A stretch of DNA of 64,000 nt from Candidatus Cloacimonadota bacterium (lineage in GTDB: Bacteria > Cloacimonadota > Cloacimonadia > Cloacimonadales > TCS61): positions 3,499 through 67,498 of the forward strand of contig JAUXIJ010000006.1 of assembly GCA_030621085.1 (NCBI GenBank), in the 5' to 3' direction. Numbering within the stretch: position 1 is the first letter of the stretch; each line of letters opens with the position of its first letter. The position numbers and the translations under genes were made by a program. Shown here piece after piece: positions 12,681 through 52,832 of the stretch. Below the pieces are notes generated by a model. The model did no database searches. It saw only the letters and a program-made list of their open reading frames with translations, and had not been told where the DNA came from.

Positions 12681-13514
12681 TTAGAATCTGCGATGCAAAC
12701 CGATCCAGGGAGAAATTGCGTCATGCGTTTCAAGGTCTGTATACAGAAAGTTATTATGGAATTTCACACTTGTAGAAAGTGACCATTTGTCGTAATTCCA
12801 GAAGAAACCATTAAACATCTGGAATTCTGTAGCAGTACCGCAAGGTACTGGTATGCCAGTAGACCAATCCATATTATTATCTTCAGCATAAGTATTACTA
12901 AGACCAAAATCAGACCAGCCCTGATAAGAAAGATTAAACTTCTCGCTGAATTTCTTAACAACAGTAAACCAGTTAATAGCAACAACCCAACCGGCATCTT
13001 CGAATTTTACTTCCCAATCACCTGCTGTATTTTGCGAATTGGTATTTTCCATTCTCTTATAGAAGTTTAAAGAGAACATATTGAATAATGGAATATCCAG
13101 ATCAGTTCCAATACCAGCGTAGTAAGTATCTCCTGAGTAACCGCCACTTGCCCAACCGAGATATAAAGTAGCCAAATACCATTCTTTCACAGGACCAATT
13201 GCCAAATTTTTACCAGAAATAGTATTTAAACTAAATCTGGGATTAACTTTCAAGAAATAATCACCCGGTGCTACAGATTCTTTCAATTCATCTCTAACAC
13301 CAAAGACATTATTGATATCAAAAAAGTAATAGAAATTTAAACAACCGGTTCTTCCACCACCCTCAATTTCAAAATAAGTAAGATTGTAAGTCTCACCACC
13401 ATACGGATTAGAAACACCGATTCCTTCATAAAAATTCAATTGTCCCCAGGTAAAGTCTGCGAACATACTTGTAGCCAACAATAATCCTAACAAAATAACT
13501 AAAGTTTTTTTCAT
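12681..13514 (-). CDS. tsx: Tsx/OmpK-family nucleoside-specific outer-membrane channel
   Basis: Signal peptide MKKTLVILLGLLLATSMFA. NPRFSLNTISGKNLAIGPVKEWYLA matches E. coli Tsx (as I recall it) [25 protein letters not shown], and YAGIGTDLDIPL matches YMGLGTDIDTGL. C-terminal F. Confidence 0.7.
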   Translation of the reverse strand: MKKTLVILLGLLLATSMFADFTWGQLNFYEGIGVSNPYGGETYNLTYFEIEGGGRTGCLNFYYFFDINNVFGVRDELKESVAPGDYFLKVNPRFSLNTISGKNLAIGPVKEWYLATLYLGWASGGYSGDTYYAGIGTDLDIPLFNMFSLNFYKRMENTNSQNTAGDWEVKFEDAGWVVAINWFTVVKKFSEKFNLSYQGWSDFGLSNTYAEDNNMDWSTGIPVPCGTATEFQMFNGFFWNYDKWSLSTSVKFHNNFLYTDLETHDAISPWIGLHRRF

Positions 13515-13775: not shown

Positions 13776-14732
13776 TTAGAATGTGAAACCAACTTGAAGA
13801 TCAAGTGTAGCATCGATATCTTCACCAAGAGCATCTTTTGCAGAATCCATGTTGTATTCAATTTTTACGAAGGCACTATCTTTTGGTTTAATATTCAAAC
13901 CTATGATCATGTTGTTTTCACCCATACCTTCATCATCTACATCATCTTTTGTGATGTAACCGAAATAAGGTATTGCTTTACCACATATTGGAATATCAAA
14001 TCCGGGAACATAATGAAGAAGAGCATACAGGTTCATATCACCAGTATCTTCGTTGTCATCATCGATATTTGTGAGCTGGAAAGCAAGATTAGCTTTTTCT
14101 GCTATTGTGTAATCAAAGTCAAATTCCCAATTCATAACGCTTTCAGGATCATCCCAGCTTACTTCAAATGTAACAGTATCAACTATCGCTGCACTTGTCG
14201 CATCCATCATAAAAGCAGCACCAAGGTTTGCACCGGCAACACTGTATGTAAAACGTCCACCCATATCAGCAGCATAGATATACCAAGCAGCATCTCCTGC
14301 ATCATAGTTAGCATAGTAAAATGACCAACCTAAGCCGGAAACATTACCCAGAAGTTTAACCATCATTTCAGCATCAGCTACAGTTAAACCAGCATATTGA
14401 AGATTCTTGGAAGGTTTACCGGATGTAAGTCTGCCAAAAGCATATTGGTCTTTACCCATCCTGATATCAAAGAAATCACAGACTTTAAGTTGTTTCCATG
14501 CTCTGTTGATACCGATAACCCCATCATCATGTAAAATGACTTGAGTAATATTAAAATCAGCGCAATAATCATCTGCTGCGCTCCAGCTTAATCCAACATA
14601 ATCTGCACTCCAACCGCCATCTTCATCAGCCTGACCATCGGGAACGATAATCGGTGCGCTCATAAATACTTCATGAGCAAACATAGATGTTGCTAAAAAT
14701 AATCCTAATAAAATAATTAAGGATCTTTTCAT
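13776..14732 (-). CDS. outer-membrane beta-barrel porin, family unknown
   Basis: Signal peptide MKRSLIILLGLFLATSMFA is nearly identical to that of the Tsx-like gene. Acidic mature part. C-terminal ..LQVGFTF. Confidence 0.55.
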   Translation of the reverse strand: MKRSLIILLGLFLATSMFAHEVFMSAPIIVPDGQADEDGGWSADYVGLSWSAADDYCADFNITQVILHDDGVIGINRAWKQLKVCDFFDIRMGKDQYAFGRLTSGKPSKNLQYAGLTVADAEMMVKLLGNVSGLGWSFYYANYDAGDAAWYIYAADMGGRFTYSVAGANLGAAFMMDATSAAIVDTVTFEVSWDDPESVMNWEFDFDYTIAEKANLAFQLTNIDDDNEDTGDMNLYALLHYVPGFDIPICGKAIPYFGYITKDDVDDEGMGENNMIIGLNIKPKDSAFVKIEYNMDSAKDALGEDIDATLDLQVGFTF

Positions 14733-36310: not shown

Positions 36311-36338
36311 ACCACAGAGCTCACGGAGAGCACAGAGG
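36311..36338 (+). repeat. CAC-N-RAG word
   Basis: ACCACAGAGCTCACGGAGAGCACAGAGG lies directly upstream of the guaA start. Confidence 0.6.
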
Positions 36339-36404: not shown

Positions 36405-36804
36405 TTGTCATCCTGAGCGAAGTCGAAGGATAAACAATCATTTCCTAATATAATTTTTTGAATGAGAATCATTTTTACATTCTGCCAGTTTGTGCAATAA
36501 ATTAAATTTATCATTAATCAATGCTTCCTTTTTTGCTCTTGTCCAACCCTTTATTTGTCTTTCTGCAGATATTGCATCATAGGCATCTTCGAAATAATCT
36601 GAAAAAATGAGCTTAACTGGTCTTCTATTCTTTGTATAACCTTTGATTGTACCTTGTTGATGCTCTGATATCCTCTTTTCAATATCTGATGTTGATCCAG
36701 TATAATACGATCCATCAGAGCATTTTAAAATATAAACCCAATATGTTTTCATTTCTTTAACCTGATTAAATCATTTGCTCCTTCGACTCCGCTCAGGATG
36801 ACAA
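36405..36804 (-). mobile_element. GIY-YIG gene cassette bracketed by 26-bp inverted repeats (mobility hypothetical)
   Basis: Left IR is TTGTCATCCTGAGCGAAGTCGAAGGA (36405-36430). The reverse complement of the right IR (36779-36804) is TTGTCATCCTGAGCGGAGTCGAAGGA, giving 25/26 identity. The IRs lie 7 and 26 nt from the gene ends. Confidence 0.4.
36438..36752 (-). CDS. GIY-YIG nuclease family protein (small, UPF0213-like)
   Basis: 104 aa starting MKTYWVYILKCSDGSYYTGSTSDIEKRISEHQQG. Confidence 0.85.
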   Translation of the reverse strand: MKTYWVYILKCSDGSYYTGSTSDIEKRISEHQQGTIKGYTKNRRPVKLIFSDYFEDAYDAISAERQIKGWTRAKKEALINDKFNLLHKLAECKNDSHSKNYIRK

Positions 36805-36810
36805 ATGATT

Positions 36811-37410
36811 TTATATATTTCTACAATTCTCCGTGTGCTCTGTGGTTAATATTTTCTTCAAACATTCACTATAAAAAACATGCTCTACAGCCAGTCCTCT
36901 TTGTTCCACTTCTTCCAGAGTTTTGCAATCTGAAATATCTACTTCTTTTTTCGCAATTACCTGTCCGGTATCGAATCCCTCATTCACAAAATGAACAGTG
37001 ACTTTAGTTTTTTCCATCTTATTTTCAAATGCCCATTCATAACCGTGCAAACCTTGATGCAGAGCTGTATCAGCAGGATGGATGTTGATGATCCTGTTTC
37101 TAAACCTCTGAACAACATCAGAACTTAAGATCTTCATATAACCTGCTAAAATAATGTAATCGGGATTCAATTCATCAAGATAATCAAACAGTAATTTATT
37201 GTATGTCGACCGCTTTTTCCCTTTGGATTCTATTACTTTTGTATCGAGCCTAAAACTTTCTGCGATGACCAGCCCAGGAGCATCTTTTTTATTGGAGAAT
37301 ACCACAATAACATCGCAAAGGTCTTTCAGCATTCCGTTTTTTACATTATCCACGATCGCTTTCATATTGCTACCGCGACCGGAAATGAGGATTGCTATTT
37401 TTTTTTTCAT
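36811..37410 (-). CDS. purN: phosphoribosylglycinamide formyltransferase
   Basis: Start moved to ATG 37410 (MKKKIAILISGRGSNM), which is 1 nt after the upstream stop. Has IINIHPA. The last 11 codons read through a CAC-N-RAG word. Confidence 0.85.
   Translation of the reverse strand: MKKKIAILISGRGSNMKAIVDNVKNGMLKDLCDVIVVFSNKKDAPGLVIAESFRLDTKVIESKGKKRSTYNKLLFDYLDELNPDYIILAGYMKILSSDVVQRFRNRIINIHPADTALHQGLHGYEWAFENKMEKTKVTVHFVNEGFDTGQVIAKKEVDISDCKTLEEVEQRGLAVEHVFYSECLKKILTTEHTENCRNI
36829..36846 (-). repeat. CAC-N-RAG word inside the purN 3' end
   Basis: The reverse complement reads ACCACAGAGCACACGGAG, translated as ..TTEHTE.. in purN. Confidence 0.55.
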
Positions 37411-37411
37411 A

Positions 37412-38527
37412 TTAATGAAGATCATCAAGCCAACAGGCTGTTTTGATAAATTTTTTCTTGAAGAATTTACCACTATTTTTTGGATCTTTTGTCTGATGAT
37501 ATTTAAAATAAATTTCATCGTTCATAATCCCAAGTATTTCTATCTTCCCTGTTTTATGCGACATCACATATTTAAACCGTTTTCCGTGACCGCTCAATCT
37601 TGTTTTTGCTTCTTCCACTATCTTAATACCTTTAAATAGGGATACTTGGAAGTTGTATTTAACCCTTTTCACTGGTCTACATTGGAAAATGTAATATGGA
37701 TTTATTCCGATAGAAACCATTTTTTTTTGTAAGTTTGCAATAATTTCCGGATTATCATTTACACCTTTCAATAGAACTGTCTGATTATTTATTATTACTC
37801 CAGCTCGAAGTAGCTTTCTTGCTGCTCTTTTAAGCTCATTTGTAATTTCTTTTGGATGATCAATTTGAGTAACCAGATATATTTGCTTCTTATATTTCGC
37901 ATATCTTCGGAATAATATTAATAATTCCTCATCTTTCAGAATTCTATTTGGTAGGAACACAGGCATTTTTGTTCCAAATCTAACAAAATCGAGATGTTGA
38001 ATATCTTCCAATTCCACCAAAAATTTGCGGATTATTTCGGTTTCCAACATAAGTGGATCTCCGCCAGTAATAAGAACATTATTGATCTCTTTATGCTGCC
38101 GAATATATTCTGTTGCTTTTTTAAAATTTTTGATGACTTCTTTGGTAGATTTTCCCACCATTCTTTTGCGAAAACAGAAGCGACAATAACTTGCACATTG
38201 ATTAGTTGCTAAGATGAGTGCTGTTTGGTTATATTTATGTTGAAATCCCAAGAATTTTGTATTAGATTTCTCGCCGCCGGTATCGTACGAACCGGAAAGA
38301 TTTTTTTCTTCCACAGAAGGTATCACCATTTTTTTTATTGGATCATCAGGATTTTCAAAATCTATCAGTTTTAAATAGTATTGTGTTATACTCATCGGGT
38401 GACGTTTTACTAATTTCTTAAAATGGATTTCTTCCTGCTTAGTTAACCGAATATATTTTTTAAGTTCTTCAATTGTTGTTATGCTCTGTTTTAACTCATT
38501 TCTCCACATAGTTAATTTCACCTTCAT
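37412..38527 (-). CDS. KamA-family radical SAM protein (lysine 2,3-aminomutase-like)
   Basis: Has NQCASYCRFCFRKRMVG (CxxxCxxC) and a general KamA/EpmB-like layout. 371 aa. Confidence 0.75.
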   Translation of the reverse strand: MKVKLTMWRNELKQSITTIEELKKYIRLTKQEEIHFKKLVKRHPMSITQYYLKLIDFENPDDPIKKMVIPSVEEKNLSGSYDTGGEKSNTKFLGFQHKYNQTALILATNQCASYCRFCFRKRMVGKSTKEVIKNFKKATEYIRQHKEINNVLITGGDPLMLETEIIRKFLVELEDIQHLDFVRFGTKMPVFLPNRILKDEELLILFRRYAKYKKQIYLVTQIDHPKEITNELKRAARKLLRAGVIINNQTVLLKGVNDNPEIIANLQKKMVSIGINPYYIFQCRPVKRVKYNFQVSLFKGIKIVEEAKTRLSGHGKRFKYVMSHKTGKIEILGIMNDEIYFKYHQTKDPKNSGKFFKKKFIKTACWLDDLH

Positions 38528-39772: not shown

Positions 39773-39800
39773 ACTTCTCCTTTCCTACTGCTAATCTTAG

Positions 39801-39913
39801 TTGGTTCAATCGTCCCGATTGAACCATTTCGTTTCTTGAGAATCGTCTCGATCCTATTATCAGAGCGGGACGGTCTGACCCAAACATTTCATTCAATCGG
39901 GACGATTGAACGA
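39801..39913. repeat. 113-bp palindromic REP/MITE-like element, copy 1
   Basis: The termini GTTCAATCGTCCCGATTGAAC and GTTCAATCGGGACGATTGAAC are reverse complements, and each is itself a 9-bp hairpin. 102/113 identical to copy 2 by hand alignment. Confidence 0.8.
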
Positions 39914-39923
39914 GCATCGTTTT

Positions 39924-39942
39924 CCTCCGTGTTCTCTGTGGT
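39924..39942 (-). repeat. CAC-N-RAG word at the purC-purE stop
   Basis: The reverse complement reads ACCACAGAGAACACGGAGG. In the 39946-39924 extension GTTAACCACAGAGAACACGGAGG, the TAA is the purC-purE stop codon. Confidence 0.55.
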
Positions 39943-41327: not shown

Positions 41328-41365
41328 AATTTTCTCCTTATATTCTTACTAAAAATTCACGTCTG

Positions 41366-41478
41366 TTGGTTCAATCGTCCCGATTGAACCATTTCGTTCC
41401 TTGAGAATCGTCTCGATTCACCTAACAGATCGGGACGATCTGAATCAAACATTTCATTCAATCGAGACGATTGAACGA
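41366..41478. repeat. 113-bp palindromic REP/MITE-like element, copy 2
   Basis: Same element and orientation as copy 1. Lies between purH and purC-purE. Confidence 0.8.
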
Positions 41479-41500
41479 ACGAAGTATTTTGTTCTTAATC

Positions 41501-43114
41501 CTAATGCTTAAAATGCCTGATTCCCGTGAACACCATTGCAATTCCTAACTCATCACATTTTTTTATAACCTTTTTATCCCGAATTGAACCTCCAGGTTGG
41601 ATAATAGTTTTTATCCCTGCTTCTGCAGCGAGTTCAACGTTGTCTGCAAAAGGAAAGAAAGCATCTGACACCAGAATAACATTTCCTAATTCTGTTTTGT
41701 AATAGTCCTGCAAATCTTTTCCAGAAAACTCATTAGTTAAATTTTCTTTAGCTTTTTCAATAGCAAGCTTCGTAGAAACAAGACGATTTGGTTGACCTGC
41801 TCCCATTCCCAGCAGTTGATAGGTTTTATCACTTAATTCTCTAACAATAATGATCGAATTCGATTTCACTTGTCGCATCGCTTTGATGCCAAATTCTATC
41901 AAATCCTTTTTTAAATCAATATCAATTTGCTTTTCTGTTACATTTTCTATCTTTTCATAAAGTTTATTATCACAATCCTGCAACAGCAGAGAACCCGAAA
42001 GGTACTTTACTTCAAACTTTTGTTTGGAATTTTGAGGATCAAATTCAATAACTCTCAAATTCTTATGAAATTGCAGGTATTCCAGCGCTTCATCGGAATA
42101 TTTTGGTGCAATAATTACTTCCACGAACTTTCGAAGCATTTTATTTTCATTATTAAGATTCAGGAATTCTACTGTTTTCAAATCTACAGGTTTATTAAAA
42201 GCAATGATCGAACCGAAAGCCGAGATCGGATCACCTCTCCAAGCATCTTCAAATACTTTGCGCTGGTTATCTCCTTCTGCTAATCCGCAGGGATTGTTGT
42301 GTTTAATAACAGCACAACCAAACCGCTTGAGATTTTTTACTGAATCGACCGCACTCTGAATATCTCCGATGTTATTGTAGGAAAGCTCTTTCCCGTGCAG
42401 AACCTTCATGTCGGCAAGAGAATTTTCTGCACCTGTTTCTTTAAAGAAAAATCCTTCCTGATGAGAATTTTCTCCGTATCGCAATTTCTTTCCATCCGTG
42501 AAAGCAAGTCGCAATGATAGTTCTCCAGCTTGTTCGTCCATTGTTGTGGAAATCAAAGCATCGTAATCCGCTGTGTGATTGAAAGCTTTTCTCATTAGCA
42601 TAAATCTTGTCTCATAAGAAATGCATCCTTCATTTTCCTGCAACTCTTTGATTACTGAATCATAATCATTCACATCTGTAATAGTGGTAACATATTTAAA
42701 GTTCTTTGCAGATGCACGTATCATCGTGGGACCACCAATATCTATATTTTCTATAAGAGTGTCAAAATTAGCTCCTGATCCCTTAACTTTTGCAAAAGGA
42801 TAAAGATTACAAACAACCATGTCTATCGGCTTTATACCCAGTTTTTTGGCTTCCTGTTTATCTTTTTCTCTATCAAAAAGAAGCGCAGATTCGATATTGA
42901 ACGAAATAGTTTTCATTCTTCCACCGAATGCTTCAGGATTTCCTGTGATTTTTAGGATGTCGGTAACGAGAATTCCTGCTTCTTCCAATACTTTTTTTGT
43001 TCCACCAGTAGAGATAATTTCGCAATTGAATTCCTGCAGAACTTTCGCCAATTCCACAATTCCCGTTTTATTAGAAACGCTGATTAGAGCACGGTTGATT
43101 TTGGTATTTTCCAT
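41501..43114 (-). CDS. purH: bifunctional AICAR transformylase / IMP cyclohydrolase
   Basis: Has ALISVSNKTGIVELAK..ISTGGT (MGS-like), the AICARFT core, and C-terminal ..GIRHFKH. Confidence 0.9.
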   Translation of the reverse strand: MENTKINRALISVSNKTGIVELAKVLQEFNCEIISTGGTKKVLEEAGILVTDILKITGNPEAFGGRMKTISFNIESALLFDREKDKQEAKKLGIKPIDMVVCNLYPFAKVKGSGANFDTLIENIDIGGPTMIRASAKNFKYVTTITDVNDYDSVIKELQENEGCISYETRFMLMRKAFNHTADYDALISTTMDEQAGELSLRLAFTDGKKLRYGENSHQEGFFFKETGAENSLADMKVLHGKELSYNNIGDIQSAVDSVKNLKRFGCAVIKHNNPCGLAEGDNQRKVFEDAWRGDPISAFGSIIAFNKPVDLKTVEFLNLNNENKMLRKFVEVIIAPKYSDEALEYLQFHKNLRVIEFDPQNSKQKFEVKYLSGSLLLQDCDNKLYEKIENVTEKQIDIDLKKDLIEFGIKAMRQVKSNSIIIVRELSDKTYQLLGMGAGQPNRLVSTKLAIEKAKENLTNEFSGKDLQDYYKTELGNVILVSDAFFPFADNVELAAEAGIKTIIQPGGSIRDKKVIKKCDELGIAMVFTGIRHFKH

Positions 43115-43122
43115 AATTACCC

Positions 43123-44883
43123 TTAAATTTTGTTCTTATAATTTATCACATAGAAAAGCATTAATTCTTCCAATCTTGTTCCAAAGACCTCAAAATTTAC
43201 AGGTTCTTTGTAATTCTTAACCATCTTTTGTGCTTGAATAAGATTCGATTCGAAAATGTCTTGAATATTCTCAGTTTTTTCCAATTCAAACTTTTTCATA
43301 TTCAGTAATGTGTCGAAATCCAGATTAAGCGGAGTTTGAAATTCCTGCTCATCCAGATGATTCCAATCACCAGTCTGAAAATCTAGTTCATAATACGGAA
43401 GAAAGAGATGACCATTTTCGATGATAAATTTCAACACATTTATGATATAATCAAATTCCTCAATAGAAAGCGTATAATGCAGATTAACCCTGACCCAGCC
43501 AGGTTTGAGTCCTGAATATTTATCCACACCGATAAGACATTGATAATACTTGGAAAGCTCTTCGCTGATACCAAGAAGTGTATGACCATAAGGACCTGCA
43601 CACGAGCAACCCGCACGCGTTTGAATACCGAAGAGATCGTTCATCAATTTTGTTACAAATTTCGGATGAAGAATGCGATCTTTATGTTTGATATTGAATG
43701 GAATTATGTTGATCTTCTTATGAATCTCAGTAGGACCATAGAAAGTAATTCTGTCATTATTTTTGAAATTATCGTAGAATTTTTTTAGAAAATAATGCTC
43801 TACTTCCTCGATATTATTGATCCCGACCTTTTCCTTTAACTGGAAGACCAAAGAAACTTTGATATTCTGCAGAATACCGGGAGTTCCGGGTTTTTCACGG
43901 GTTTCGATATCTTTTACATATTGTTCTCTTTTCTTTGTGACATAATCTACTGTTCCACCAGCAGCGATGGATGGCGGAAGGTCTTTCGGGTAAATATTTT
44001 CGTTAATAATGAGAATTCCGGAAGTTCCGGGACCGCCCAGAAATTTATGTGGTGAAAGAAAAATTGCATCAAAATAACTTTCTTTGTCCTTGTTCATATT
44101 AATCTCGATATAAGGAGCACAGGCAGCAAAATCGAAACAGGCAATTGTATTGTGTTTATGCAGAATTTTGGCAACTTCATAAACGGGAGTTTTAATTCCC
44201 GAAACATTAGAAGCTGCAGAAAAAGAACCGATTTTGGGTCTATTATCATACTTTGGATTAAATACTGTTTTTTCTAGTTTGATAAGATCAAGTTCACCAT
44301 CTTCATTCAAAGGAATTTCAATAACTTCGCAAAGCGTTTGTCTCCACATAATTTCATTGGAATGATGTTCATAAGGTCCTACAAAAACAATAGGTTTTTT
44401 ATTTTCTATATAATCTCTAAGTTCCTTATTGCATTTTGTATTTTGGGGATATCTTTCCAAGCAGCTTTCTAAAAAAGTATTAATACGTTTTTTAGTGGCA
44501 GGAGGCCAGTACACTCCCAGGATTTGCTGAAGTCGAGTAATTCCACCGGTTGTTCCCGATTCTGTAAAGATTATCTTGCCAGTATCACCTGCATTAACAA
44601 TTTTCTTTATAATTCTCTCTGCTTTATGAAGAATTTCCGTCATTGTTTTTCCGGTAAAGTCATCTTCTGTGTGAGTGTTTGCATAATACTGCATCAGGTG
44701 AAGCATATAATTTTCTATCGAAAACAAACACCTTCCACTGGCTGTATAATCCGCATAAATAAGCGGTTTTTCACCGAAAGGTGTTTTGAACATTTTATTA
44801 CGTCCGATGATATCGGATCTGAGCCATTTCAGGTTTTCTACTAATTCTTCAGGTTTCATTATACCTCTATCATTATTTTTCAT
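43123..44883 (-). CDS. class-V aminotransferase / cysteine-desulfurase-fold PLP enzyme, 586 aa
   Basis: Has YADYTASGR, TESGTTGG and FLSPHKFLGGPGTSGIL (PLP lysine). ATGA overlap with the upstream 796-aa ORF. Confidence 0.75.
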   Translation of the reverse strand: MKNNDRGIMKPEELVENLKWLRSDIIGRNKMFKTPFGEKPLIYADYTASGRCLFSIENYMLHLMQYYANTHTEDDFTGKTMTEILHKAERIIKKIVNAGDTGKIIFTESGTTGGITRLQQILGVYWPPATKKRINTFLESCLERYPQNTKCNKELRDYIENKKPIVFVGPYEHHSNEIMWRQTLCEVIEIPLNEDGELDLIKLEKTVFNPKYDNRPKIGSFSAASNVSGIKTPVYEVAKILHKHNTIACFDFAACAPYIEINMNKDKESYFDAIFLSPHKFLGGPGTSGILIINENIYPKDLPPSIAAGGTVDYVTKKREQYVKDIETREKPGTPGILQNIKVSLVFQLKEKVGINNIEEVEHYFLKKFYDNFKNNDRITFYGPTEIHKKINIIPFNIKHKDRILHPKFVTKLMNDLFGIQTRAGCSCAGPYGHTLLGISEELSKYYQCLIGVDKYSGLKPGWVRVNLHYTLSIEEFDYIINVLKFIIENGHLFLPYYELDFQTGDWNHLDEQEFQTPLNLDFDTLLNMKKFELEKTENIQDIFESNLIQAQKMVKNYKEPVNFEVFGTRLEELMLFYVINYKNKI

Positions 44884-47270
44884 AGAAATGGTGTCGATTC
44901 AAAATTATCTTTTCTTAATTGATACCATTTCACCTCAATTTTTAATGTTTCTAAATCTTCATTTAGTTTTTTAATCTTCTCTTTAATATTTTTATTACAG
45001 TTTTTATCTAAAGAAGAAAAAATAACTATATCGGGTTTAATTATTTCTGCCATTTCTTTCATTGTTATAAAATCGTAGTTTCTAAAACCATCAATAGATT
45101 GTTTAATCTCTCCAATAATTAATTTACCATCTTGAATACATACAATATCTAAATCAGTAAAAGGTTCGCTTTTACCTTTCTTAAATATCTCTAATGATGT
45201 ATTATAAATAAATGATGTTCGACTTTCTTCAAGCAATTGACCTAAAACCAAAATAACAGGTGTTAAGCCTTGAAGAGAATATCCTATATGAACAAGACTA
45301 TTTAGCTTATAAAACCAGTTTTCATTTGGTTTGATTGAAAATTTAACTCTACAACCTTTACAGATAATATCTTGTTTAATTTCATCAATATGAAACCATT
45401 GCCCGATCCCGCAACTTGGACAATGAGGTCTAATACCAACTTGGATTATACCTAATTTAATGAATTCTGCTAAAGTTTCCTTCATATTAGAAATAAATTC
45501 TTCTTTTTGATATCCAAGTTTCTCATTATCCTTTATAGAATTAAATTTCTCACAAACCTTTTCAGCTTCTTCTATAAATACATTATATGTTATTTCATTA
45601 TGTAAAGTTACAATATCTCTAGATAATTTCGAAACATAGTCAGTTAGCCAATTCAAACTATCTTTACTCTTTTTGAAGATTTCACTTTTTTTTCTCAATG
45701 CATTCTTAATTTCTTTTCTTTTATTTTTATCTTTCTTAGGATTTACATTCGATAAAATATCGAACATATGACGCCAATAACTAATTTCTAAATACTGTTT
45801 TGCAATAAATAAATCTTTAAAAAGATTTATAAAACCAGACATATATCTTCCTGTGTTCGAAGGCTGAATAAAAGCTAAATTGTCATGTTTTAAGTAACCT
45901 CTTGCATCTGATTTTAATATTGGTTTATCTTCATCTGTTAACAAAAAACGAAATATTTCTGAATCATTTATCAAATTTATCTGAAGATTTTGAAGTTCAC
46001 GTGCTAATAATACTGAAGGAAATCCATTTGAACATATTCTTGATGCAGAATTAAATAAATCATAAGCTAGCCTATTATGTTGAGGTAATTTCCACCACAA
46101 AGTTTTTCCTTGAATATTTGGATAACGTTCAGGACGAAATTGCATATAAATATCAGCGACCCATGATTCACCGCTCATCAAACCTTTTTCAACTTTAGGT
46201 GGATTTAATTTAATCTGAACTTTATCGCCAGTAACTTGGAATGAATCCATTTCACTCGTTATTGAAACAAAATCGCTATTCTCTTTGTATTGTGGCAATC
46301 TGATTTCTTCATATGTACTAATTATTTTTGAAATCGAATTTTTAGTTAACTTCTCAGCAATCTCTTTAAGCTCACTTTCATCAATGCTATAACTAATAAA
46401 TTTTATTCTACAAACTCCAGAAACACTTTGTCTATTTGATAAATTTCTGAACAACTCATACAAACCTTCTTCAAGTTCTTTTGAGGATGCTATTTCTTTG
46501 GGTAACCATATACTATTCAAAGATCTATTTGAATATCTCGTTAATGATAAAATTGAATTCCAGTTGTAAACAATATCTTTTGGTGAATCTCCTATAACAA
46601 CTGTAAAAAATTGATCTGTATCTTCAAATTTAGTTCCTTTTAGGTTGTGCGGAATTGAACAAAATTGAATTGGGAAAACAAAATTATTATTCACACTTAT
46701 TTTTAATAATGCATCGTTTAAAGATTCTCTACTACTTATTTTTATTATATTTTTTCTATTTTTATCCATCTCATAGATGGATATTGTATTTCGAAAAGAT
46801 GAAAAATTTATATAAATAAATTGTTTTAATACAATATCTTCCATTCCATCTGTATCAAGAAGAACAAGTTTGGAATGATATAGCTCATTTAAATTGTATT
46901 CTGATTGCTTAATTGATAAACCATTATAATCACACTTAATATAGTAATCTTCATAATTTTGAATTTCTTGCTCAGGCATTTTTAATGAAATGGGAGAAAG
47001 AAAATTATCAATTTTCTGAATTAAATCCATTTCTAAAGGTAATAAAGATAGAATAATATCTGGATCGAAAGCATTAAGAAACGTCCACCAATCATTTTTA
47101 ACTGTTTTTCCATCAGTAAATATAATAGGATTATAACGTCCTCCCCAAAGATGCAAATTGAAATCAATAACTTTCTGGATTTGGGATAATACATATTTTT
47201 CGGGATTTATTAGAAAAGCTATTCTTAATGGACGTTTTTTAATATATATTGAATAGGGTTCTTGTATCAT
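44880..47270 (-). CDS. 796-aa protein of unknown function with C-terminal zinc ribbon and PD-(D/E)xK-like motif series
   Basis: Uninterrupted ORF, with GGAG 6 nt upstream of the ATG. CPSC-x16-CKGC spans aa 617-640, followed by LLEES (681), FTDLDIV (706/708) and GEIKQS (721-723). I recognised no motif in the first ~600 aa and no Walker A. Confidence 0.6.
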   Translation of the reverse strand: MIQEPYSIYIKKRPLRIAFLINPEKYVLSQIQKVIDFNLHLWGGRYNPIIFTDGKTVKNDWWTFLNAFDPDIILSLLPLEMDLIQKIDNFLSPISLKMPEQEIQNYEDYYIKCDYNGLSIKQSEYNLNELYHSKLVLLDTDGMEDIVLKQFIYINFSSFRNTISIYEMDKNRKNIIKISSRESLNDALLKISVNNNFVFPIQFCSIPHNLKGTKFEDTDQFFTVVIGDSPKDIVYNWNSILSLTRYSNRSLNSIWLPKEIASSKELEEGLYELFRNLSNRQSVSGVCRIKFISYSIDESELKEIAEKLTKNSISKIISTYEEIRLPQYKENSDFVSITSEMDSFQVTGDKVQIKLNPPKVEKGLMSGESWVADIYMQFRPERYPNIQGKTLWWKLPQHNRLAYDLFNSASRICSNGFPSVLLARELQNLQINLINDSEIFRFLLTDEDKPILKSDARGYLKHDNLAFIQPSNTGRYMSGFINLFKDLFIAKQYLEISYWRHMFDILSNVNPKKDKNKRKEIKNALRKKSEIFKKSKDSLNWLTDYVSKLSRDIVTLHNEITYNVFIEEAEKVCEKFNSIKDNEKLGYQKEEFISNMKETLAEFIKLGIIQVGIRPHCPSCGIGQWFHIDEIKQDIICKGCRVKFSIKPNENWFYKLNSLVHIGYSLQGLTPVILVLGQLLEESRTSFIYNTSLEIFKKGKSEPFTDLDIVCIQDGKLIIGEIKQSIDGFRNYDFITMKEMAEIIKPDIVIFSSLDKNCNKNIKEKIKKLNEDLETLKIEVKWYQLRKDNFESTPFL

Positions 47271-47275
47271 TTTTC

Positions 47276-47303
47276 ACTCCGTGTTCTACGTGCGCTCTGT
47301 GGT
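47276..47303 (-). repeat. CAC-N-RAG word forming the purQ / 796-aa gene junction
   Basis: The reverse complement reads ACCACAGAGCGCACGTAGAACACGGAGT. It contains the purQ stop (TAG) and the GGAG Shine-Dalgarno of the next gene. Confidence 0.6.
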
Positions 47304-48113
47304 TATATATTCCACAATATTCATGAATATCTTCAACCCATCTCCATCTTCGGAGATATCAGGATTCTGTCTTTTCATTTGTGACCAATTCGGATGGTTA
47401 TATAAACTGAGAAAAGCTTCGGGATGCGGCATTAAACCGAAAACTTTTCCTGTTTCATTCGTAAGTCCGGCACAATTAAGTTCCGAACCATTGGGATTCA
47501 TTGGATACTTGGAAATCTCTTTACCCTCTTTGTCACAATAAGTTAGACAATTAAGCTTTTTTTCAATTATTTTATTTTTAATTCTTTCATTCTTAATTAT
47601 CAACTTCCCTTCCCCGTGTCGAACCGGAAGAAAGATATTATCAATTCCTTTCAAGAAAGGCGATTTGCTGTTTTCACTCACTTTGCAATAAATCCATCTG
47701 TCCTCAAATTTTCCCGAATTATTTCCCGTAAGCGTAACTTCCTGCTCAAAGTCGGAATTCAAATTCGGAAGAAGTCCCATTTTCACCAAGAATTGGAAGC
47801 CATTACAAACACCCAGAATGAATTTTCCTTCATTTAGAAAATCTTGAATATCATCGAAGAACAATTTTCCGGATTTCAGTTTTTTAAACTTCATTTTATT
47901 GGAAAGAACTTTCCCCGAGCCCAGATCATCTCCGAAAGAGAACCCGCCGGGAAAATTGAGAATATCATAATCGTGGATCGAGCATTTTCCCAGAAAGATA
48001 TCATTTAGATGGACTATTTCTGCTTCAGCACCTGCAAGCTTGTAAGCAGCAGCCATTTCCTCTTCACAGTTTATGCCATAACCGGTAATGATTAATGATT
48101 TAACTTTTTTCAT
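47286..48113 (-). CDS. purQ: FGAM synthase glutaminase subunit
   Basis: Has GVCNGFQFL (nucleophile Cys) and MPHPE. Confidence 0.9.
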   Translation of the reverse strand: MKKVKSLIITGYGINCEEEMAAAYKLAGAEAEIVHLNDIFLGKCSIHDYDILNFPGGFSFGDDLGSGKVLSNKMKFKKLKSGKLFFDDIQDFLNEGKFILGVCNGFQFLVKMGLLPNLNSDFEQEVTLTGNNSGKFEDRWIYCKVSENSKSPFLKGIDNIFLPVRHGEGKLIIKNERIKNKIIEKKLNCLTYCDKEGKEISKYPMNPNGSELNCAGLTNETGKVFGLMPHPEAFLSLYNHPNWSQMKRQNPDISEDGDGLKIFMNIVEYITTERT

Positions 48114-51100
48114 TAATCGAATCCTTTATCCCAGGCTTCCTGCAATTTTTCAATTTCCAATTCAATTAATTTTTTCCCACTTTGATTTACAATCAATTTT
48201 TTCGTTGAATTTACTTTACCAAGAAATAGTGAGTTAGAACTCATTAATTTATCAAACATAGTTTGATTTTCAGATTTTATACTAACCACAAAACGCGAAT
48301 GGGATTCGGAGAAGAGAATTGCATTCAAACTCAAATCTCCCAATTCAGAAACATCCAATTCCGCTCCGAATTCTGTTCCGATCGCACTTTCGCAAACAGC
48401 AACCGTCAATCCACCATCAGAAAGATCATGGCAGGATTCTATCAGATTTTGCTCATTTGCTTTCATAACTTTTTCATACAATCGTTTTGCATTTTCCTTT
48501 CTCACTTTGGGAACATTTGCTCCGAGTTTGTCGAATAATCTATAGAATTCGGAAGCACCAAGCTCATCGTAAGTTTCTCCCAGAATGTAAATCAGGTCAC
48601 CATCTGCTTTGAAGTTGCTCGTAATTGTTTTTCTCACATCAGAAAGCTTAGCAACCATCGAATACAGGATCGTAGGCGGAACTGATATCTTAACTTCTCC
48701 TGCTTTAAAGTCATTCTTCATACTATCTTTGCCGGAAGTCATGGAAATATTATAGAAAACGGACATCTCGAAAAGTGCTTTATTCATCTGTACCAGTTTT
48801 GCAAGTTTCTGTTTTCCATCAGGATTTTTTTCGGGATCAAAAGCGGAATCGGGAACGCAGAAATTATCATTCACAGTCCAGAACCTGTTCGATTTGTCAT
48901 TGATATCAGGAAGCTTTCCGCCGACTGAAATAATTTGACGAATCGCTTCATCGAAGGCTCCAGCACTCATTTCATAAGCATCGATATCCCCGAATTTTGG
49001 GCAGATACCATTTGAGATCGCAATTCCTTCGAAGCTGTTAAAATTCAATCTCATCACAGCCGCATCCTGAGGAGATTTTCCGTCTTCCCCCATCAAAGGT
49101 TTGATGATGGTTTTTCCTTTCACTTCATGATCATATTGACGTATTACATTTTCACGAGAACAGATGTTGTTGCTTCCCATTAGTTTTATTAAAATCTCGT
49201 TGTAATCAAGATTAGAAGGAAGTTCCGGTTCTGAGAGTTCAGGTTTTTTCCATTCGGCTTTCATATATTTTTTTGGAACTCCATTATGCAGAAAATCCAT
49301 TTCCAACAGGATAACTTTTTCATTGTCATATCGTACATCGATAAAACCGGTTGAAGTGAATTCCCCAATATCTGAAAGTTCTACTTCACGCTCTTTTGCA
49401 AGCTTAAAAAGAGCTTCTTTTTTGTCTTCTTCCACCACAAAAGTCATTCTTTCCTGCGATTCTGAAACAAAAATTTCCCAAGGTTTCAGGTTCGCATATT
49501 TCAGCGGAACTTTCTCCAGATGTATTTCCGCTCCACCGGTGATCTCGGCAAGTTCTCCGACGGAGGAAGATAAACCGCCTGCTCCATTATCTGTAGAACA
49601 CTTTATCAAACCTTGTTCAACTGCTTCCTGCATAAAATCTGAAAGCAATTTTTGAGTAATGGGACTTCCAATCTGAACGGCTGATTGCGGAGAATGTTCG
49701 TCTATTTCTGCAGAAGAGAATGTTGCTCCGTGAATTCCGTCTTTGCCAACTCTACCTCCTGCCATAATTATCAGATCACCGTCATCGATAGGTTTTTCCC
49801 AGGAATTAACTCCGGCAAATTTGTATGGCATCACTCCGCCTGTTCCGCAATATACCAGCGGCTTGCCACTGTAGCGATCATCAAAAATGATCGAGCCGTT
49901 CACAGTGGGAATCCCCGATTTATTACCTCCGTCTTCAATCCCGTGACGAACTCCTTCAAAAATTCGTTTGGGATGAAGCTGTCCGGGAAGCAGTTCCTTA
50001 CTATAATCCGGAGGTCCGAAGCAGAGAACATTTGTATTGAAAAGCAGTTTCCCACCACCGATTCCCGTTCCAAGCGGATCGCGATTATTTCCCAGAATTC
50101 CGGTAATCGCTCCACCGTAAGGATCTATCGCAGAAGGCGAATTGTGAGTTTCCACTTTCCACACAAATACCGATTCACCATTGATCTTCACTACTCCAGC
50201 ATTATCTGTAAATATCTTCAAGAGCCAGTTATTACCTGCTTTTTCCAGTCTTTCGCGAATGATCTCGGTAGAACTGCGAATATATGTTTTAAAGAGCGAA
50301 TCGATAGTTTCTTCTTCTCCTGTTTCCAGATTTTTATAATGAATGGAAGCTGAAAATTCTTTGTGTTTGCAATGCTCACTCCAGGTTTGTGCTAGGACTT
50401 CCATTTCACAATCCGTAGGATTTACGGTCAGATTATTTTTCTTACGAATCTTTTTAACTTTCTCATCTGAAAAATAAGACTGGATCGCTTTCATCTCTTC
50501 CAAATTCAGAGACAATAATCTATCCTTGGAAATCTTCAACAATTCATCCTCAGTTACATTCAAATCAACTGTTCCAGTTTTGTTATTTTGTTCAATCCGA
50601 ACTTCGGGAATATAATCTATCTTTCCCGTGAATTTTCCATATTCAAAATGATGAATGAGTTTGTTTCCTAAAAGTTTTTCAGCCAAAGTTTTCAGAATAT
50701 CATCAGATAAATGTTTTTCGATCAGATAAATATCATCAGTAAAAATATGTTGTGTGTTCGTATCCAGATCCAAATCCAGAATATCGTTCGAAGTTTTTTG
50801 AGCTGAAACACCTTCATCATCGGTTACTCCGGGAAGTTTGGAGACAAGAATAAACGATTTGTAGAACGAATCGCTGTAAGAAGAATTTATATAAACATCG
50901 TGGATTATTTCATCTTTTAGTCCAAGATTTGCAAACTTCTGAATATCCTTTTTACTCAAATCGTAGGTGATATTGAAGATCTTTCCCGTTTTTACTTTAC
51001 CAGTTTTTAGATTGAGGAAACTTAATGCGCTTCCCTCTATTTTCTCGCCCTGAACATCGATGATTTTATCTTTTAAAATAAGTTGAATTTGATTTTTCAC
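48113..51100 (-). CDS. purSL: FGAM synthase PurL with N-terminal tandem PurS-like domains
   Basis: Probable GTG start at 51100, after GAGGAA. This gives MKNQIQLILKDKIIDVQGEKIEG.., which aligns with the PurS N-terminus. The track ATG 51172 would overlap the upstream gene by 47 nt. PurL core motifs: SHNHP-like ETHNSPS and DNGAGGLSS. Confidence 0.85.
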   Translation of the reverse strand: MKNQIQLILKDKIIDVQGEKIEGSALSFLNLKTGKVKTGKIFNITYDLSKKDIQKFANLGLKDEIIHDVYINSSYSDSFYKSFILVSKLPGVTDDEGVSAQKTSNDILDLDLDTNTQHIFTDDIYLIEKHLSDDILKTLAEKLLGNKLIHHFEYGKFTGKIDYIPEVRIEQNNKTGTVDLNVTEDELLKISKDRLLSLNLEEMKAIQSYFSDEKVKKIRKKNNLTVNPTDCEMEVLAQTWSEHCKHKEFSASIHYKNLETGEEETIDSLFKTYIRSSTEIIRERLEKAGNNWLLKIFTDNAGVVKINGESVFVWKVETHNSPSAIDPYGGAITGILGNNRDPLGTGIGGGKLLFNTNVLCFGPPDYSKELLPGQLHPKRIFEGVRHGIEDGGNKSGIPTVNGSIIFDDRYSGKPLVYCGTGGVMPYKFAGVNSWEKPIDDGDLIIMAGGRVGKDGIHGATFSSAEIDEHSPQSAVQIGSPITQKLLSDFMQEAVEQGLIKCSTDNGAGGLSSSVGELAEITGGAEIHLEKVPLKYANLKPWEIFVSESQERMTFVVEEDKKEALFKLAKEREVELSDIGEFTSTGFIDVRYDNEKVILLEMDFLHNGVPKKYMKAEWKKPELSEPELPSNLDYNEILIKLMGSNNICSRENVIRQYDHEVKGKTIIKPLMGEDGKSPQDAAVMRLNFNSFEGIAISNGICPKFGDIDAYEMSAGAFDEAIRQIISVGGKLPDINDKSNRFWTVNDNFCVPDSAFDPEKNPDGKQKLAKLVQMNKALFEMSVFYNISMTSGKDSMKNDFKAGEVKISVPPTILYSMVAKLSDVRKTITSNFKADGDLIYILGETYDELGASEFYRLFDKLGANVPKVRKENAKRLYEKVMKANEQNLIESCHDLSDGGLTVAVCESAIGTEFGAELDVSELGDLSLNAILFSESHSRFVVSIKSENQTMFDKLMSSNSLFLGKVNSTKKLIVNQSGKKLIELEIEKLQEAWDKGFD

Positions 51101-51125
51101 TAATTTTACATTCCTCAATTTTTTA

Positions 51126-52244
51126 TCATTTATAGAACAATGAATTACAATTATTACCTTTCGCACAACCATTAATGATATCAGTCAAATCAAAAGGATA
51201 TTTAGCAAAAGGATTTTTTTGAATATTGACATTAACAAGTTGATATAGATTAGCTGGATTATAATCAATTAGCATAAATGCACTAACCTCTTCAAGCTTC
51301 CGTTGTTCATTAATAACGTTTTCTTCGTTTCCAGGAAGAGATGCTGCCCTGATTCCGAAAATTATATCTTCGAAATTTTCAATATTGGCTCTAGCAATGC
51401 AATTTGAAACACATACGATTATAAAAGGTTTTTTTTCTTCATTTATCAAGTTTACATATTTATGATATTTCCCTTCTTTTTCATCTAAAATTGCGTTTAT
51501 AGGTCTATAAGAATGCGCTCCACCACGTAACAATTTCCTATTTAGATGAAATGCTCCTATAGGGAGAACTTCCACAATTAAGTTATAGTTTGTAACAAAT
51601 CTGTTTTCATGATTTCTATTCAAATTGATACTTAACCATGAATCGATATCATTAATAATTACATTTACGCTTTTTATTATCCCATCTTTTACTATTTGCT
51701 TAATTTCAAAATTACTCCTATTGAAATCCAAAGTAATATGATACTTTTTTTCAAGCTTCCTTATCCTTTTAGCAAGTAAAAATATAATAGATTGTTCATA
51801 CTTATAATCATCGTATTTATTCAGTGTAAACACTTCAACAATTGCTTTCTGCTCGTTTTTTTCAATCTCCCAATCTGGGTTATTATTTCCTTTTACTTCA
51901 TACTTTGGTTGAAATTTAACGGAATATCCTAAATTTTGTAAAAAATTTCCCACCAACAGCTCGTGAAAAGAGTTTTGCATATTAAAATCATTTGAGAACA
52001 TATATCCATAGAATTCATGTTTTTTTTCAGAACTTAGATTCACTAAACAATCTGATAAGTTTGAAAAAACTGTTCTGAATAAATTAGAATTTGCTAATAA
52101 ATCTAATTTCATGAACCATTTATTAACATCTTCCACTTCTGATGTATTAATTTTTTCTTCACTTAGTATTGGGTAGGCTAATCTAATCTGATCAACAAGT
52201 TCCAACACTTCACTATGGGATTCTATTTTTTTGTACTTACTCAT
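51126..52244 (-). CDS. 372-aa hypothetical protein, weak PD-(D/E)xK-like spacing
   Basis: SFHELLVG (E95), NNPDWEI (D124) and AIVEVFTLNK (E137) are spaced like a restriction-endonuclease fold. The lysine is not in the canonical E-x-K position. Confidence 0.45.
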   Translation of the reverse strand: MSKYKKIESHSEVLELVDQIRLAYPILSEEKINTSEVEDVNKWFMKLDLLANSNLFRTVFSNLSDCLVNLSSEKKHEFYGYMFSNDFNMQNSFHELLVGNFLQNLGYSVKFQPKYEVKGNNNPDWEIEKNEQKAIVEVFTLNKYDDYKYEQSIIFLLAKRIRKLEKKYHITLDFNRSNFEIKQIVKDGIIKSVNVIINDIDSWLSINLNRNHENRFVTNYNLIVEVLPIGAFHLNRKLLRGGAHSYRPINAILDEKEGKYHKYVNLINEEKKPFIIVCVSNCIARANIENFEDIIFGIRAASLPGNEENVINEQRKLEEVSAFMLIDYNPANLYQLVNVNIQKNPFAKYPFDLTDIINGCAKGNNCNSLFYK

Positions 52245-52300: not shown

Positions 52301-52705
52301 TCATTGGAAATTCCGTGTTCGACATTGGATATTCATTTTCCTAGGATCATCCGTTTCTTCCATCCTTTCATATCCAACCTTTGCTAACCAAAGTTTAAAA
52401 GGTTCTGCTTTTGGTGACGGAATGGATTGGATTAATCGTAACAGCGTTTCTGTATCTGCGACATCGGTTAATCGCATTCTGCTGTCTTTTGCTCTCATTT
52501 TCAAAGCGTGACAATTTGTCACGGTTTGACTTCCTTCCTTTATTAATCGTTCTTTCAGCTTTCTCCAATATGCTTGTGGATTTACACTTTGGGTTAATAT
52601 TGAAACAACATCAATAATAGAAAAATACCAAAGCTCCTTGTCTTCATCCCAATGTCTTCTGACATATTTCTTTTTGAAAATTGCTATTGATTTATCTTTT
52701 TTCAA
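52301..52705 (-). CDS. Bro-N domain protein (short)
   Basis: FKKKYVRRHWDEDKELWYFSIIDVVSIL and LLRLIQSIPSPKAEPFKLWLAKVGYERMEE match the Bro-N pattern. The likely start is TTG 52705, after GGGAG. The track ATG 52762 lies in repeat-filled spacer. The last 10 codons lie in a 25-bp repeat, so the protein is possibly truncated. Confidence 0.65.
   Translation of the reverse strand: MKKDKSIAIFKKKYVRRHWDEDKELWYFSIIDVVSILTQSVNPQAYWRKLKERLIKEGSQTVTNCHALKMRAKDSRMRLTDVADTETLLRLIQSIPSPKAEPFKLWLAKVGYERMEETDDPRKMNIQCRTRNFQ
52309..52333. repeat. 25-bp direct repeat, copy 1
   Basis: AATTCCGTGTTCGACATTGGATATT, 24/25 identical to the copy at 52833-52857. Confidence 0.75.
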
Positions 52706-52832
52706 TTTTTCTCCCTTTAGCAATAAAAAATTTAACCATAGAGCACACCCCGATACAGTCATTCTTCCTTACGGGGCAGGCAGAGAGCACAGAGTAAATT
52801 TACAATCTTCAATATTAAATAATCAATTTTTG

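Follow-up and report, generated by a model that had tools for sequence, protein, structure and literature searches.

What is the gene for a large protein that no domain library recognizes doing inside a purine biosynthesis operon, and does it work together with the enzyme gene that directly follows it? The question is raised by a 64,000-nucleotide (nt) stretch of DNA from a Candidatus Cloacimonadota bacterium (contig JAUXIJ010000006.1; hereafter the window), in which two genes, encoding proteins of 796 and 586 amino acids (aa), are flanked on the minus strand by purQ and purH. The closest named relatives of the locus are metagenome-assembled genomes (MAGs) of Candidatus Cloacimonadota. An initial annotation, made from the sequence alone, had correctly placed both open reading frames (ORFs) between purQ and purH and had described them as a coupled pair of an unknown protein with a nuclease-like C-terminus and a pyridoxal phosphate (PLP) enzyme. 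The best explanation of the data presented here, which we consider probable as a whole, is that the 796-aa protein is an accessory, horizontally acquired, PLP-independent and autonomous immunity-type DNase of a large unnamed family. We have high confidence that the protein is accessory and independent of the PLP enzyme, and moderate confidence that it serves in defence.

The 586-aa protein is indeed an enzyme of the cysteine desulfurase fold with an SPHKF lysine, as first proposed. It matches Aminotran_5 (Pfam, E 2e-40) and is SufS-like, scoring 127.1 bits against the NCBIfam SufS subfamily, whose cutoff is 475.1; its best PDB matches are SufS entries (E 1e-27), over residues 166-435 only. With the SufS/CsdB group II desulfurases it shares the class-V fold, the SxHK lysine (FLSPHKF, the PLP lysine) and a RAGxxCA-type cysteine loop (TRAGCSCAGP), but it remains below the cutoff, carries a C-terminal extension of ~150 aa and lies beside purH rather than beside suf genes.

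In order to judge whether the two genes belong together, we considered 75 loci with homologues of the 796-aa protein, from a scan of one genome per species. The PLP gene adjoins a homologue in only five of them, all in Cloacimonadota, and no PLP neighbour is found among the ~70 homologue loci outside this phylum. The PLP protein itself has thousands of homologues and is 60-89% identical across Cloacimonadota. In four related genomes (loci L009, L013, L090 and L091) its gene lies directly upstream of purH and the 796-aa gene is missing, and in L011, from a genome less closely related, it is not part of the pur operon. The PLP enzyme is a lineage-conserved resident of the purQ...purH region, independent of the 796-aa gene, and since its gene is kept next to purH in genomes that lack the 796-aa gene, it is not a functional partner.

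The notion of a two-gene system in which the nuclease and the desulfurase-like enzyme are translationally coupled and act together in, for example, Dnd- or Ssp-like sulfur modification or restriction is therefore extremely unlikely. What speaks for it is the adjacency of the genes, with an ATGA overlap in the window, L015 and L016, the recurrence of the pair in five Cloacimonadota genomes, and weak matches of the PLP enzyme to DndA and SspA, the desulfurases of the sulfur-modification systems that the initial annotation had cited by analogy. The analogy does not hold: the enzyme scores 24.9 bits for DndA against a cutoff of 480 (NCBIfam), and the PADLOC models of DndA and SspA match at E about 1e-12 over residues 182-310 only, so that these matches reflect generic class-V similarity. 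Furthermore, no DndBCDE or SspBCD genes are present at the locus, where the flanking genes are purL, purQ, purH, purC/E, purD, a radical S-adenosylmethionine (SAM) gene and purN. A further argument against a two-gene system comes from L017 (8853-12783), in which an ATPase_2 gene is followed by an intact 791-aa homologue and then by an N-terminal PLP fragment of ~138 residues with a frame break, in a 22-kb locus that contains no pur genes. It would seem that the contents of the slot described below were translocated as a copy, which retains a scar of the PLP gene.

The overlap itself points in the same direction. As the initial annotation had noted, the ATG with which the PLP ORF opens shares nucleotides with the stop codon of the 796-aa gene (TGA, 44882-44880), but the coupling inferred from this overlap is not conserved. 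PLP homologues of other genomes begin at the residue that aligns with M9 (MKPEEL/MKAKEL...NLEWLR), and the corresponding ATG in the window is preceded by a Shine-Dalgarno-like site (Table 1). When the junctions of five related genomes were compared, ATGA was kept in L015 and L016, whereas in L017, L018 and L019 a TAA terminates the nuclease gene and is followed after 18-22 nt by the PLP start, which has a Shine-Dalgarno site of its own (AAGGA or GAAGAGG). The true PLP start is probably M9, which would give a protein of 578 aa. Because homologues start at M9, and because three relatives have a TAA stop, a spacer and a Shine-Dalgarno site, the ATGA overlap is most likely a product of the longest-ORF rule rather than a conserved coupling device. 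The two genes are nonetheless close enough for co-transcription. Tight operon adjacency, even with an ATGA overlap, is thus a poor indicator of functional partnership.

What varies among the related operons is the content of the position between purQ and the PLP gene. In place of the 796-aa gene, L009 carries RidA and an ATPase_2 gene, L013 and L091 carry a Pat-like acyl-CoA synthetase/GNAT protein, and L090 carries ATPase_2, CorA, DUF432 and MscS genes. When Cloacimonadota are ranked by the identity of their PLP enzymes, presence and absence of the 796-aa gene interleave. The simplest account of these observations is that this position is a hypervariable slot, which the 796-aa gene occupies as one alternative among several cargos. 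ATPase_2 was considered as a possible partner, since it precedes the gene in four Cloacimonadota loci, and was rejected: it occurs alone in L009 and L090 and is absent both from the window and outside the phylum.

The 796-aa gene would have been acquired horizontally into this slot, beside the resident PLP gene. It is compositionally foreign within the window and skewed towards AT, with a GC content of 0.269 and a GC content at third codon positions (GC3) of 0.168, as compared to a GC3 of 0.25-0.37 in the flanking genes. Its close relatives number only a handful, as opposed to the thousands of PLP homologues. Between the window and L004, the 796-aa proteins are 59% identical and the PLP enzymes 85%. 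Horizontal acquisition is suggested by this difference, the GC3 skew and the interleaved presence and absence, together with the patchy spread of the family and a homologue that appears to be plasmid cargo (see below). Transcription is presumed to reach the gene by read-through from the pur operon promoter. Accessory defence-like genes can lodge in a core biosynthetic operon with almost no intergenic space.

The junction with purQ consists of a repeat word of three tandem 9-mers (Table 1), which codes for the purQ C-terminus and its TAG stop (47288-47286) and contains a GGAG (47277-47280) located 6 nt before the ATG of the 796-aa gene at 47270; the gap between the two genes is 15 nt. In this respect the initial annotation was accurate. 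Its suggestion that the gene had been spliced in at a junction cassette survives in part, in that the position between purQ and the PLP gene varies in its contents and has a repeated word at its border, but the word is a general intergenic repeat of the lineage and not specific to the 796-aa gene. As a query, the 16-mer CGTAGAACACGGAGTG is too long and gives a single match; shorter and degenerate patterns reveal the repeat. The degenerate pattern CACRGAGNNCACRGAG has 4 sites in the 64-kb window, all in the pur operon, as compared to 0.01 expected by chance. Among the sister copies, one lies directly after the purCE stop and one directly after the purN stop, while an inverted copy sits between a GIY-YIG gene and guaA. 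The same 9-mer arrays are present in L004/L016, L019 and L090, and absent from L009, L013 and L091. The arrays (NNCACRGAG, 2-3 units) mostly abut TAA/TTAA at gene ends and are found at the borders of accessory insertions; they may represent element ends or recombination sites.

We then turn to the 796-aa protein. Its first ~600 aa, in which the initial annotation recognized nothing, remain unrecognizable by every method used, and the CPSC-x16-CKGC zinc ribbon and the LLEES, FTDLDIV and GEIKQS series that follow are located exactly where they had been placed. The protein has no model in Pfam (2025), NCBIfam (2026), PADLOC (2023) or PHROGs, and the family profile has no match among PDB sequences. 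The sole recurrent library signal is Zn_ribbon_IS1595, with weak matches in 24 of 33 homologues; in addition, there is a weak YraN match (E 0.48, aa 676-746), and NERD is found in one of the 33 members. A word-index search returned 115 homologues. An exhaustive profile search returned 4174 representatives at E<=1e-3 (794 at E<=1e-30), each representing a cluster at 50% identity, so that the family comprises at least 4174 clusters. Nearly all representatives are ~800 aa long and match from end to end.

Conservation extends over the entire protein. The four cysteines of the ribbon (C617, C620, C637 and C640) and the residues D708, E721 and K723 are invariant in all 33 aligned homologues, and among 132 full-length family representatives, CxxC...CxxC is found in 131 and D...(E/D)xK in 129. 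The invariant motifs of the N-terminal region include LWGGRYNP (42-48), DPD (69-71), NFG (155-157) and WN (237-238); individual residues that are invariant in the 33-sequence alignment are N38, W42, G43, G44, W62, P70, D71, N155, F156, G227, W237, N238, R411 and R500. The helical linker between these regions is the most length-variable part of the family, with alignment insertions in a Poribacteria subfamily of ~900 aa. The possibility that the family carries variable C-terminal effectors was rejected, since the zinc ribbon and the D..ExK motif are retained even by homologues whose match is split in two. As judged from these alignments, the architecture of the family is fixed and not modular.

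The AlphaFold2 (AF2) model of the protein, built from the 33-sequence alignment, has a predicted local distance difference test (pLDDT) score of 86.9 and a predicted template modelling (TM) score (pTM) of 0.83. It shows three N-terminal domains, namely: alpha/beta (1-100), alpha/beta (120-320) and beta-rich (340-470). In the C-terminal domain (658-796), the order of elements is alpha-beta-beta-beta-alpha-beta. Foldseek comparison with the PDB returns VC1899/Card1, Can2, Cdn1 and EcoT38I at a probability of 0.89-0.99; the EcoT38I match (0.99) covers 129 columns with a root-mean-square deviation (rmsd) of 5.5. In BFVD, weak 'restriction endonuclease' and primase zinc-finger matches are the only ones found. 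The nuclease matches are lost in a separate model of residues 1-606, from which residues 607-796 have been removed. A zinc ribbon followed by a PD-(D/E)xK fold is a well supported prediction for the C-terminus, because the motif is invariant and the Foldseek matches depend on residues 607-796; the initial proposal of a PD-(D/E)xK-like C-terminus is borne out in this way.

The model of residues 1-606 alone retrieves ANL adenylate-forming enzymes only, at a probability of 0.1-0.41, a TM score of 0.11-0.19 and an rmsd of about 19 Å. An ANL fold was rejected on account of these low values and the absence of ANL signature motifs. A CARF domain was likewise rejected, since no CARF protein occurs among the top 50 PDB matches of this model. 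As far as the model can tell, the N-terminal 600 aa are without a credible structural relative in the PDB.

These data bear on the idea that the protein serves the operon in some housekeeping or metabolic capacity, with an N-terminal enzyme or a regulator of purine or sulfur metabolism and a repurposed nuclease fold. Its highly conserved N-terminal motifs, its stable position in the pur operon of six genomes and the fact that ANL enzymes are the sole recurrent N-terminal structural matches would be in keeping with such a role. On the other hand, the ANL matches are of the quality given above (probability 0.1-0.4), the catalytic triad does not vary, the gene is missing from most close Cloacimonadota relatives, and its codon composition is atypical for the operon. 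Homologues elsewhere do not reside in pur operons, with the exception of incidental pur matches in L044 and L082. We regard a metabolic role as very unlikely.

If the protein is not part of the operon's own business, its relatives may indicate what it does. The spread of the family is patchy and covers more than 15 phyla: homologues are found in Cloacimonadota, Bacteroidota, several candidate-phyla-radiation (CPR) lineages, Poribacteria, Acidobacteriota, Bdellovibrionota, Gammaproteobacteria, Firmicutes, Nitrospirota, Cyanobacteria and others, including cultured Flavobacterium, Pedobacter and Mucilaginibacter. None was found in phage genomes. Neighbours within six genes were clustered over 77 loci. 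The largest clusters are HsdM (10), HsdS (9), type ISP enzymes (8) and HsdR (6), followed by YgjP, serine recombinase, integrases, Fic, Schlafen/AlbA_2, terminase and DNA methylase. In 10 loci, which represent 6 phylum-level groups, type I restriction-modification (R-M) genes are found no more than six genes away. Of the Pfam and PADLOC families assigned to the 132 immediate neighbours, the most frequent ones all belong to R-M systems.

Several of these arrangements recur with all genes co-oriented (X denoting the family member): SerRecombinase-HsdM-HsdS-HsdR-YgjP-X in Saccharibacteria, Parcubacteria, Bacteroidales and a gammaproteobacterium; HsdR-Fic-HsdS-x-X-HsdM in Poribacteria; and TypeISP-x-HNH-like-X in other Poribacteria. 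In addition, a Dehalobacter copy adjoins a phage integrase and an nSTAND NTPase, and another copy lies beside PIN and Fic genes. There is no universal partner gene, the best neighbour cluster being present in 10 of the 77 loci, and no CRISPR or cyclase genes recur near the homologues. The family thus shows recurrent proximity to R-M genes in unrelated taxa, an association of the defence-island type, and the contexts of its distant homologues fit the comparison that the initial annotation had made with defence proteins that combine an N-terminal region of unknown function with a C-terminal nuclease.

A distant homologue of 834 aa (21% identity over 67% of the query) is encoded on the Burkholderia glumae plasmid NZ_CP052134.1 (L092, 1702-9779), where it is annotated as 'hypothetical protein'. 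On this conjugative plasmid, the gene directly follows a tandem array of three tyrosine recombinases, with MazEF close by, and has the appearance of cargo carried by a recombinase-trio element. A single genome can also encode two members of the family, since L040 and L041 are from the same MAG (CAZURU01).

Based on these findings, we propose the following scheme for the 796-aa protein. The N-terminal module of ~600 aa would recognize a signal or a DNA feature and gate the activity, the C4 zinc ribbon would grip nucleic acid, and the PD-(D/E)xK domain, through D708, E721 and K723, would cut DNA. The likeliest role is in immunity, restriction-like or abortive in its action and directed at phages and other DNA invaders, because the family travels with R-M operons and mobile elements. 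From the absence of a methyltransferase partner, it would follow that the nuclease either depends on DNA modification (type IV-like) or stays latent until a trigger releases it, both modes being compatible with the data. The PLP enzyme would stay outside the mechanism.

A number of points weigh against this proposal. No described defence family matches the protein (PADLOC: 0 hits), and its C-terminus has no significant sequence-profile match to a named PD-(D/E)xK family. The N-terminal region is strongly conserved and has invariant N, R and D residues, which might point to catalysis that has nothing to do with sensing. Moreover, a defence gene would not usually be kept at the same place in an operon, as this one is in six Cloacimonadota genomes. 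As for the neighbourhoods, an R-M gene is present within six genes in only about one quarter to one third of the homologue loci, many of these loci are on short contigs, and the Poribacteria loci are mutually non-independent; the neighbour counts are raw numbers rather than defence scores set against a genome-wide background.

The same neighbourhoods could also be accounted for by a selfish nuclease, or one that maintains mobile elements (of a homing, addiction or element-transfer type), with the R-M and recombinase genes being fellow residents of shared mobile islands. The neighbours include serine recombinases, integrases, a terminase, transposases and the tyrosine recombinase trio; GIY-YIG and PDDEXK_3 genes occupy junctions of the same operons, and copies of the junction word in inverted orientation flank the GIY-YIG gene; and the ATPase_2-nuclease-PLP-fragment block of L017 has apparently been translocated. 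We nevertheless consider this explanation rather unlikely. The 15-nt and ~20-nt junctions around the 796-aa gene are too short for terminal repeats, the protein has no recombinase or transposase domain (Pfam), and in several phyla its homologues are co-oriented inside type I R-M operons, a pattern of immunity genes.

If the protein is an immunity nuclease, a more far-reaching view can be taken: it would be a new single-chain nuclease with a sensor fold not seen before, ancestrally encoded within type I operons (HsdS-x-X-HsdM or HsdR-YgjP-X) as a back-up effector that steps in once the restriction complex is knocked out or overwhelmed, and it would have become free-standing in Cloacimonadota, where a housekeeping operon provides for its expression and the slot between purQ and the PLP gene, with its 9-mer arrays, represents a new type of cargo hotspot. 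Taken in all its parts, this scenario is unlikely.

Among known systems, the type III CRISPR ancillary nucleases Card1, Can2, VC1899 and Cdn1 resemble the 796-aa protein most closely, both as its best structural matches (0.89-0.99) and in the logic of an N-terminal regulatory module followed by a C-terminal PD-(D/E)xK effector with D...ExK. Unlike them, it has no CARF match and no recurrent CRISPR or cyclase neighbours, and it is twice as long, with a helical domain and a zinc ribbon inserted before the nuclease. Immunity genes are known to lodge in type I R-M loci, as exemplified by prrC, and by mrr and mcrBC beside hsd in E. coli. With Mrr-type type IV enzymes and other such genes the family shares the design of a stand-alone nuclease that has no methyltransferase and is found repeatedly in or beside hsdRMS and type ISP loci. 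It differs from Mrr, McrBC and PrrC in having no Mrr_cat, McrB/C, HEPN or anticodon-nuclease match, and most of its members, the window copy included, have no adjacent R-M system. Finally, Shedu (SduA, DUF4263) shares the single-chain design of a presumably non-catalytic N-terminal region and a C-terminal PD-(D/E)xK domain and the occurrence in defence islands, but the 796-aa protein matches neither PADLOC Shedu (0 families at E<=1) nor Pfam DUF4263. The N-termini of Shedu are variable, whereas the whole architecture is fixed in the 796-aa family.

By its profile matches, then, the protein fits no described family among those compared, having no CARF, DUF4263, Mrr_cat or HEPN match. In the literature we found no named system of this composition; defence catalogues later than 2023 were otherwise not covered, and a recent naming is possible. 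The family is large and undescribed, with at least 4174 clusters in more than 15 phyla and a fixed architecture of ~800 aa, and since its members are found repeatedly within type I R-M loci and next to type ISP ones, it is a concrete candidate for a new immunity protein.

Table 1. Features of the purQ-purH region of the window, with copies of the junction word in the window and in related loci (nt positions; strand in brackets where it differs among copies)
Feature	Position	Strand	Basis
796-aa ORF (accessory; putative zinc-ribbon and PD-(D/E)xK nuclease)	44880..47270	-	ORF list, homologues, AF2 model
Residues 1-470, three domains (presumed sensing/recognition module)	45861..47270	-	conservation, model secondary structure
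Residues 472-606, all-helical linker domain	45453..45857	-	model secondary structure
Residues 609-656, C4 zinc ribbon (cysteines at nt 45351-45422)	45303..45446	-	invariant Cys
Residues 658-796, predicted PD-(D/E)xK domain (triad at nt 45102-45149)	44883..45299	-	invariant triad, Foldseek
586-aa ORF (SufS-like class-V PLP enzyme)	43123..44883	-	longest ORF
Probable PLP start M9 (gene 43123..44859)	ATG 44859-44857	-	homologue N-termini and junction comparison
AGAGG Shine-Dalgarno-like site	44864-44868	-	4 nt upstream of PLP M9 start
purL	48113..51172	-	
purQ	47286..48113	-	
purH	41501..43114	-	
Junction word, three tandem 9-mers CCACAGAG-CGCACGTAG-AACACGGAG	47277-47301	-	pattern scan
Sister copies of junction word	39925-39940 (-), 36829-36844 (-), 36313-36337 (+)		pattern scan
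9-mer arrays, L004/L016	8617 (+), 14242 (-)		
9-mer arrays, L090	1467 (-), 13239 (+), 14481 (-)		
9-mer arrays, L019	3262 (-), 19072 (-)		

The remaining genes and spacers of the region show further signs of insertion. Between purN and guaA lies a gene for a 104-aa GIY-YIG protein (36438..36752, minus strand), which is bracketed by inverted 9-mer arrays. The arrangement is repeated in L090, where the gene (14041-14355) lies between the arrays at 13239 and 14481, and the bracketed gene looks like a small mobile cassette. A 128-aa PDDEXK_3 gene is found at differing pur junctions, namely: between purCE and purD in L004 (17711-18097), and between the radical SAM gene and purN in L009 (15650-16036). 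It is another small mobile nuclease gene.

On the far side of purL, a 372-aa ORF (51126..52244, minus strand) with a GC content of 0.28 and a GC3 of 0.22 overlaps the start of the longest purL ORF and has no match in Pfam, NCBIfam, PADLOC or PHROG. It adjoins a Bro-N gene (52301..52762, minus strand; phrog_15286, E 2e-47), and together the two separate a transglutaminase/Por_Secre_tail gene from purL. The latter two are adjacent to each other in L004, L009 and L091. The 372-aa ORF and Bro-N make up another foreign insertion, the second one in this part of the operon.

Downstream of purH, the order of genes in the window is a purC/purE fusion, purD, a KamA-like radical SAM gene and purN. The radical SAM gene (37412..38527, minus strand) carries the CxxxCxxC motif CASYCRFC and is kept between purD and purN in most related operons, being missing in L090. 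The operon had been described as otherwise tight, but it is not so throughout: two intergenic regions of ~170 nt contain a duplicated hairpin element. These spacers, between purH and purCE (41328-41500, minus strand) and between purCE and purD (39773-39941, minus strand), carry 85% identical copies of an element of ~130 nt. A scan of the pur operon, including this element, gave no match in Rfam, and a promoter and terminator scan gave 49 promoter-like sites, as compared to 49.8 in shuffled sequences. The ~130-nt element contains paired palindromes, TTCAATCG-NNN-CGATTGAA, which are 87 nt apart, and folds into a single long hairpin (-52.9 kcal/mol, z -5.4). It is similar to a miniature inverted-repeat transposable element (MITE) or a repetitive extragenic palindromic (REP) element.

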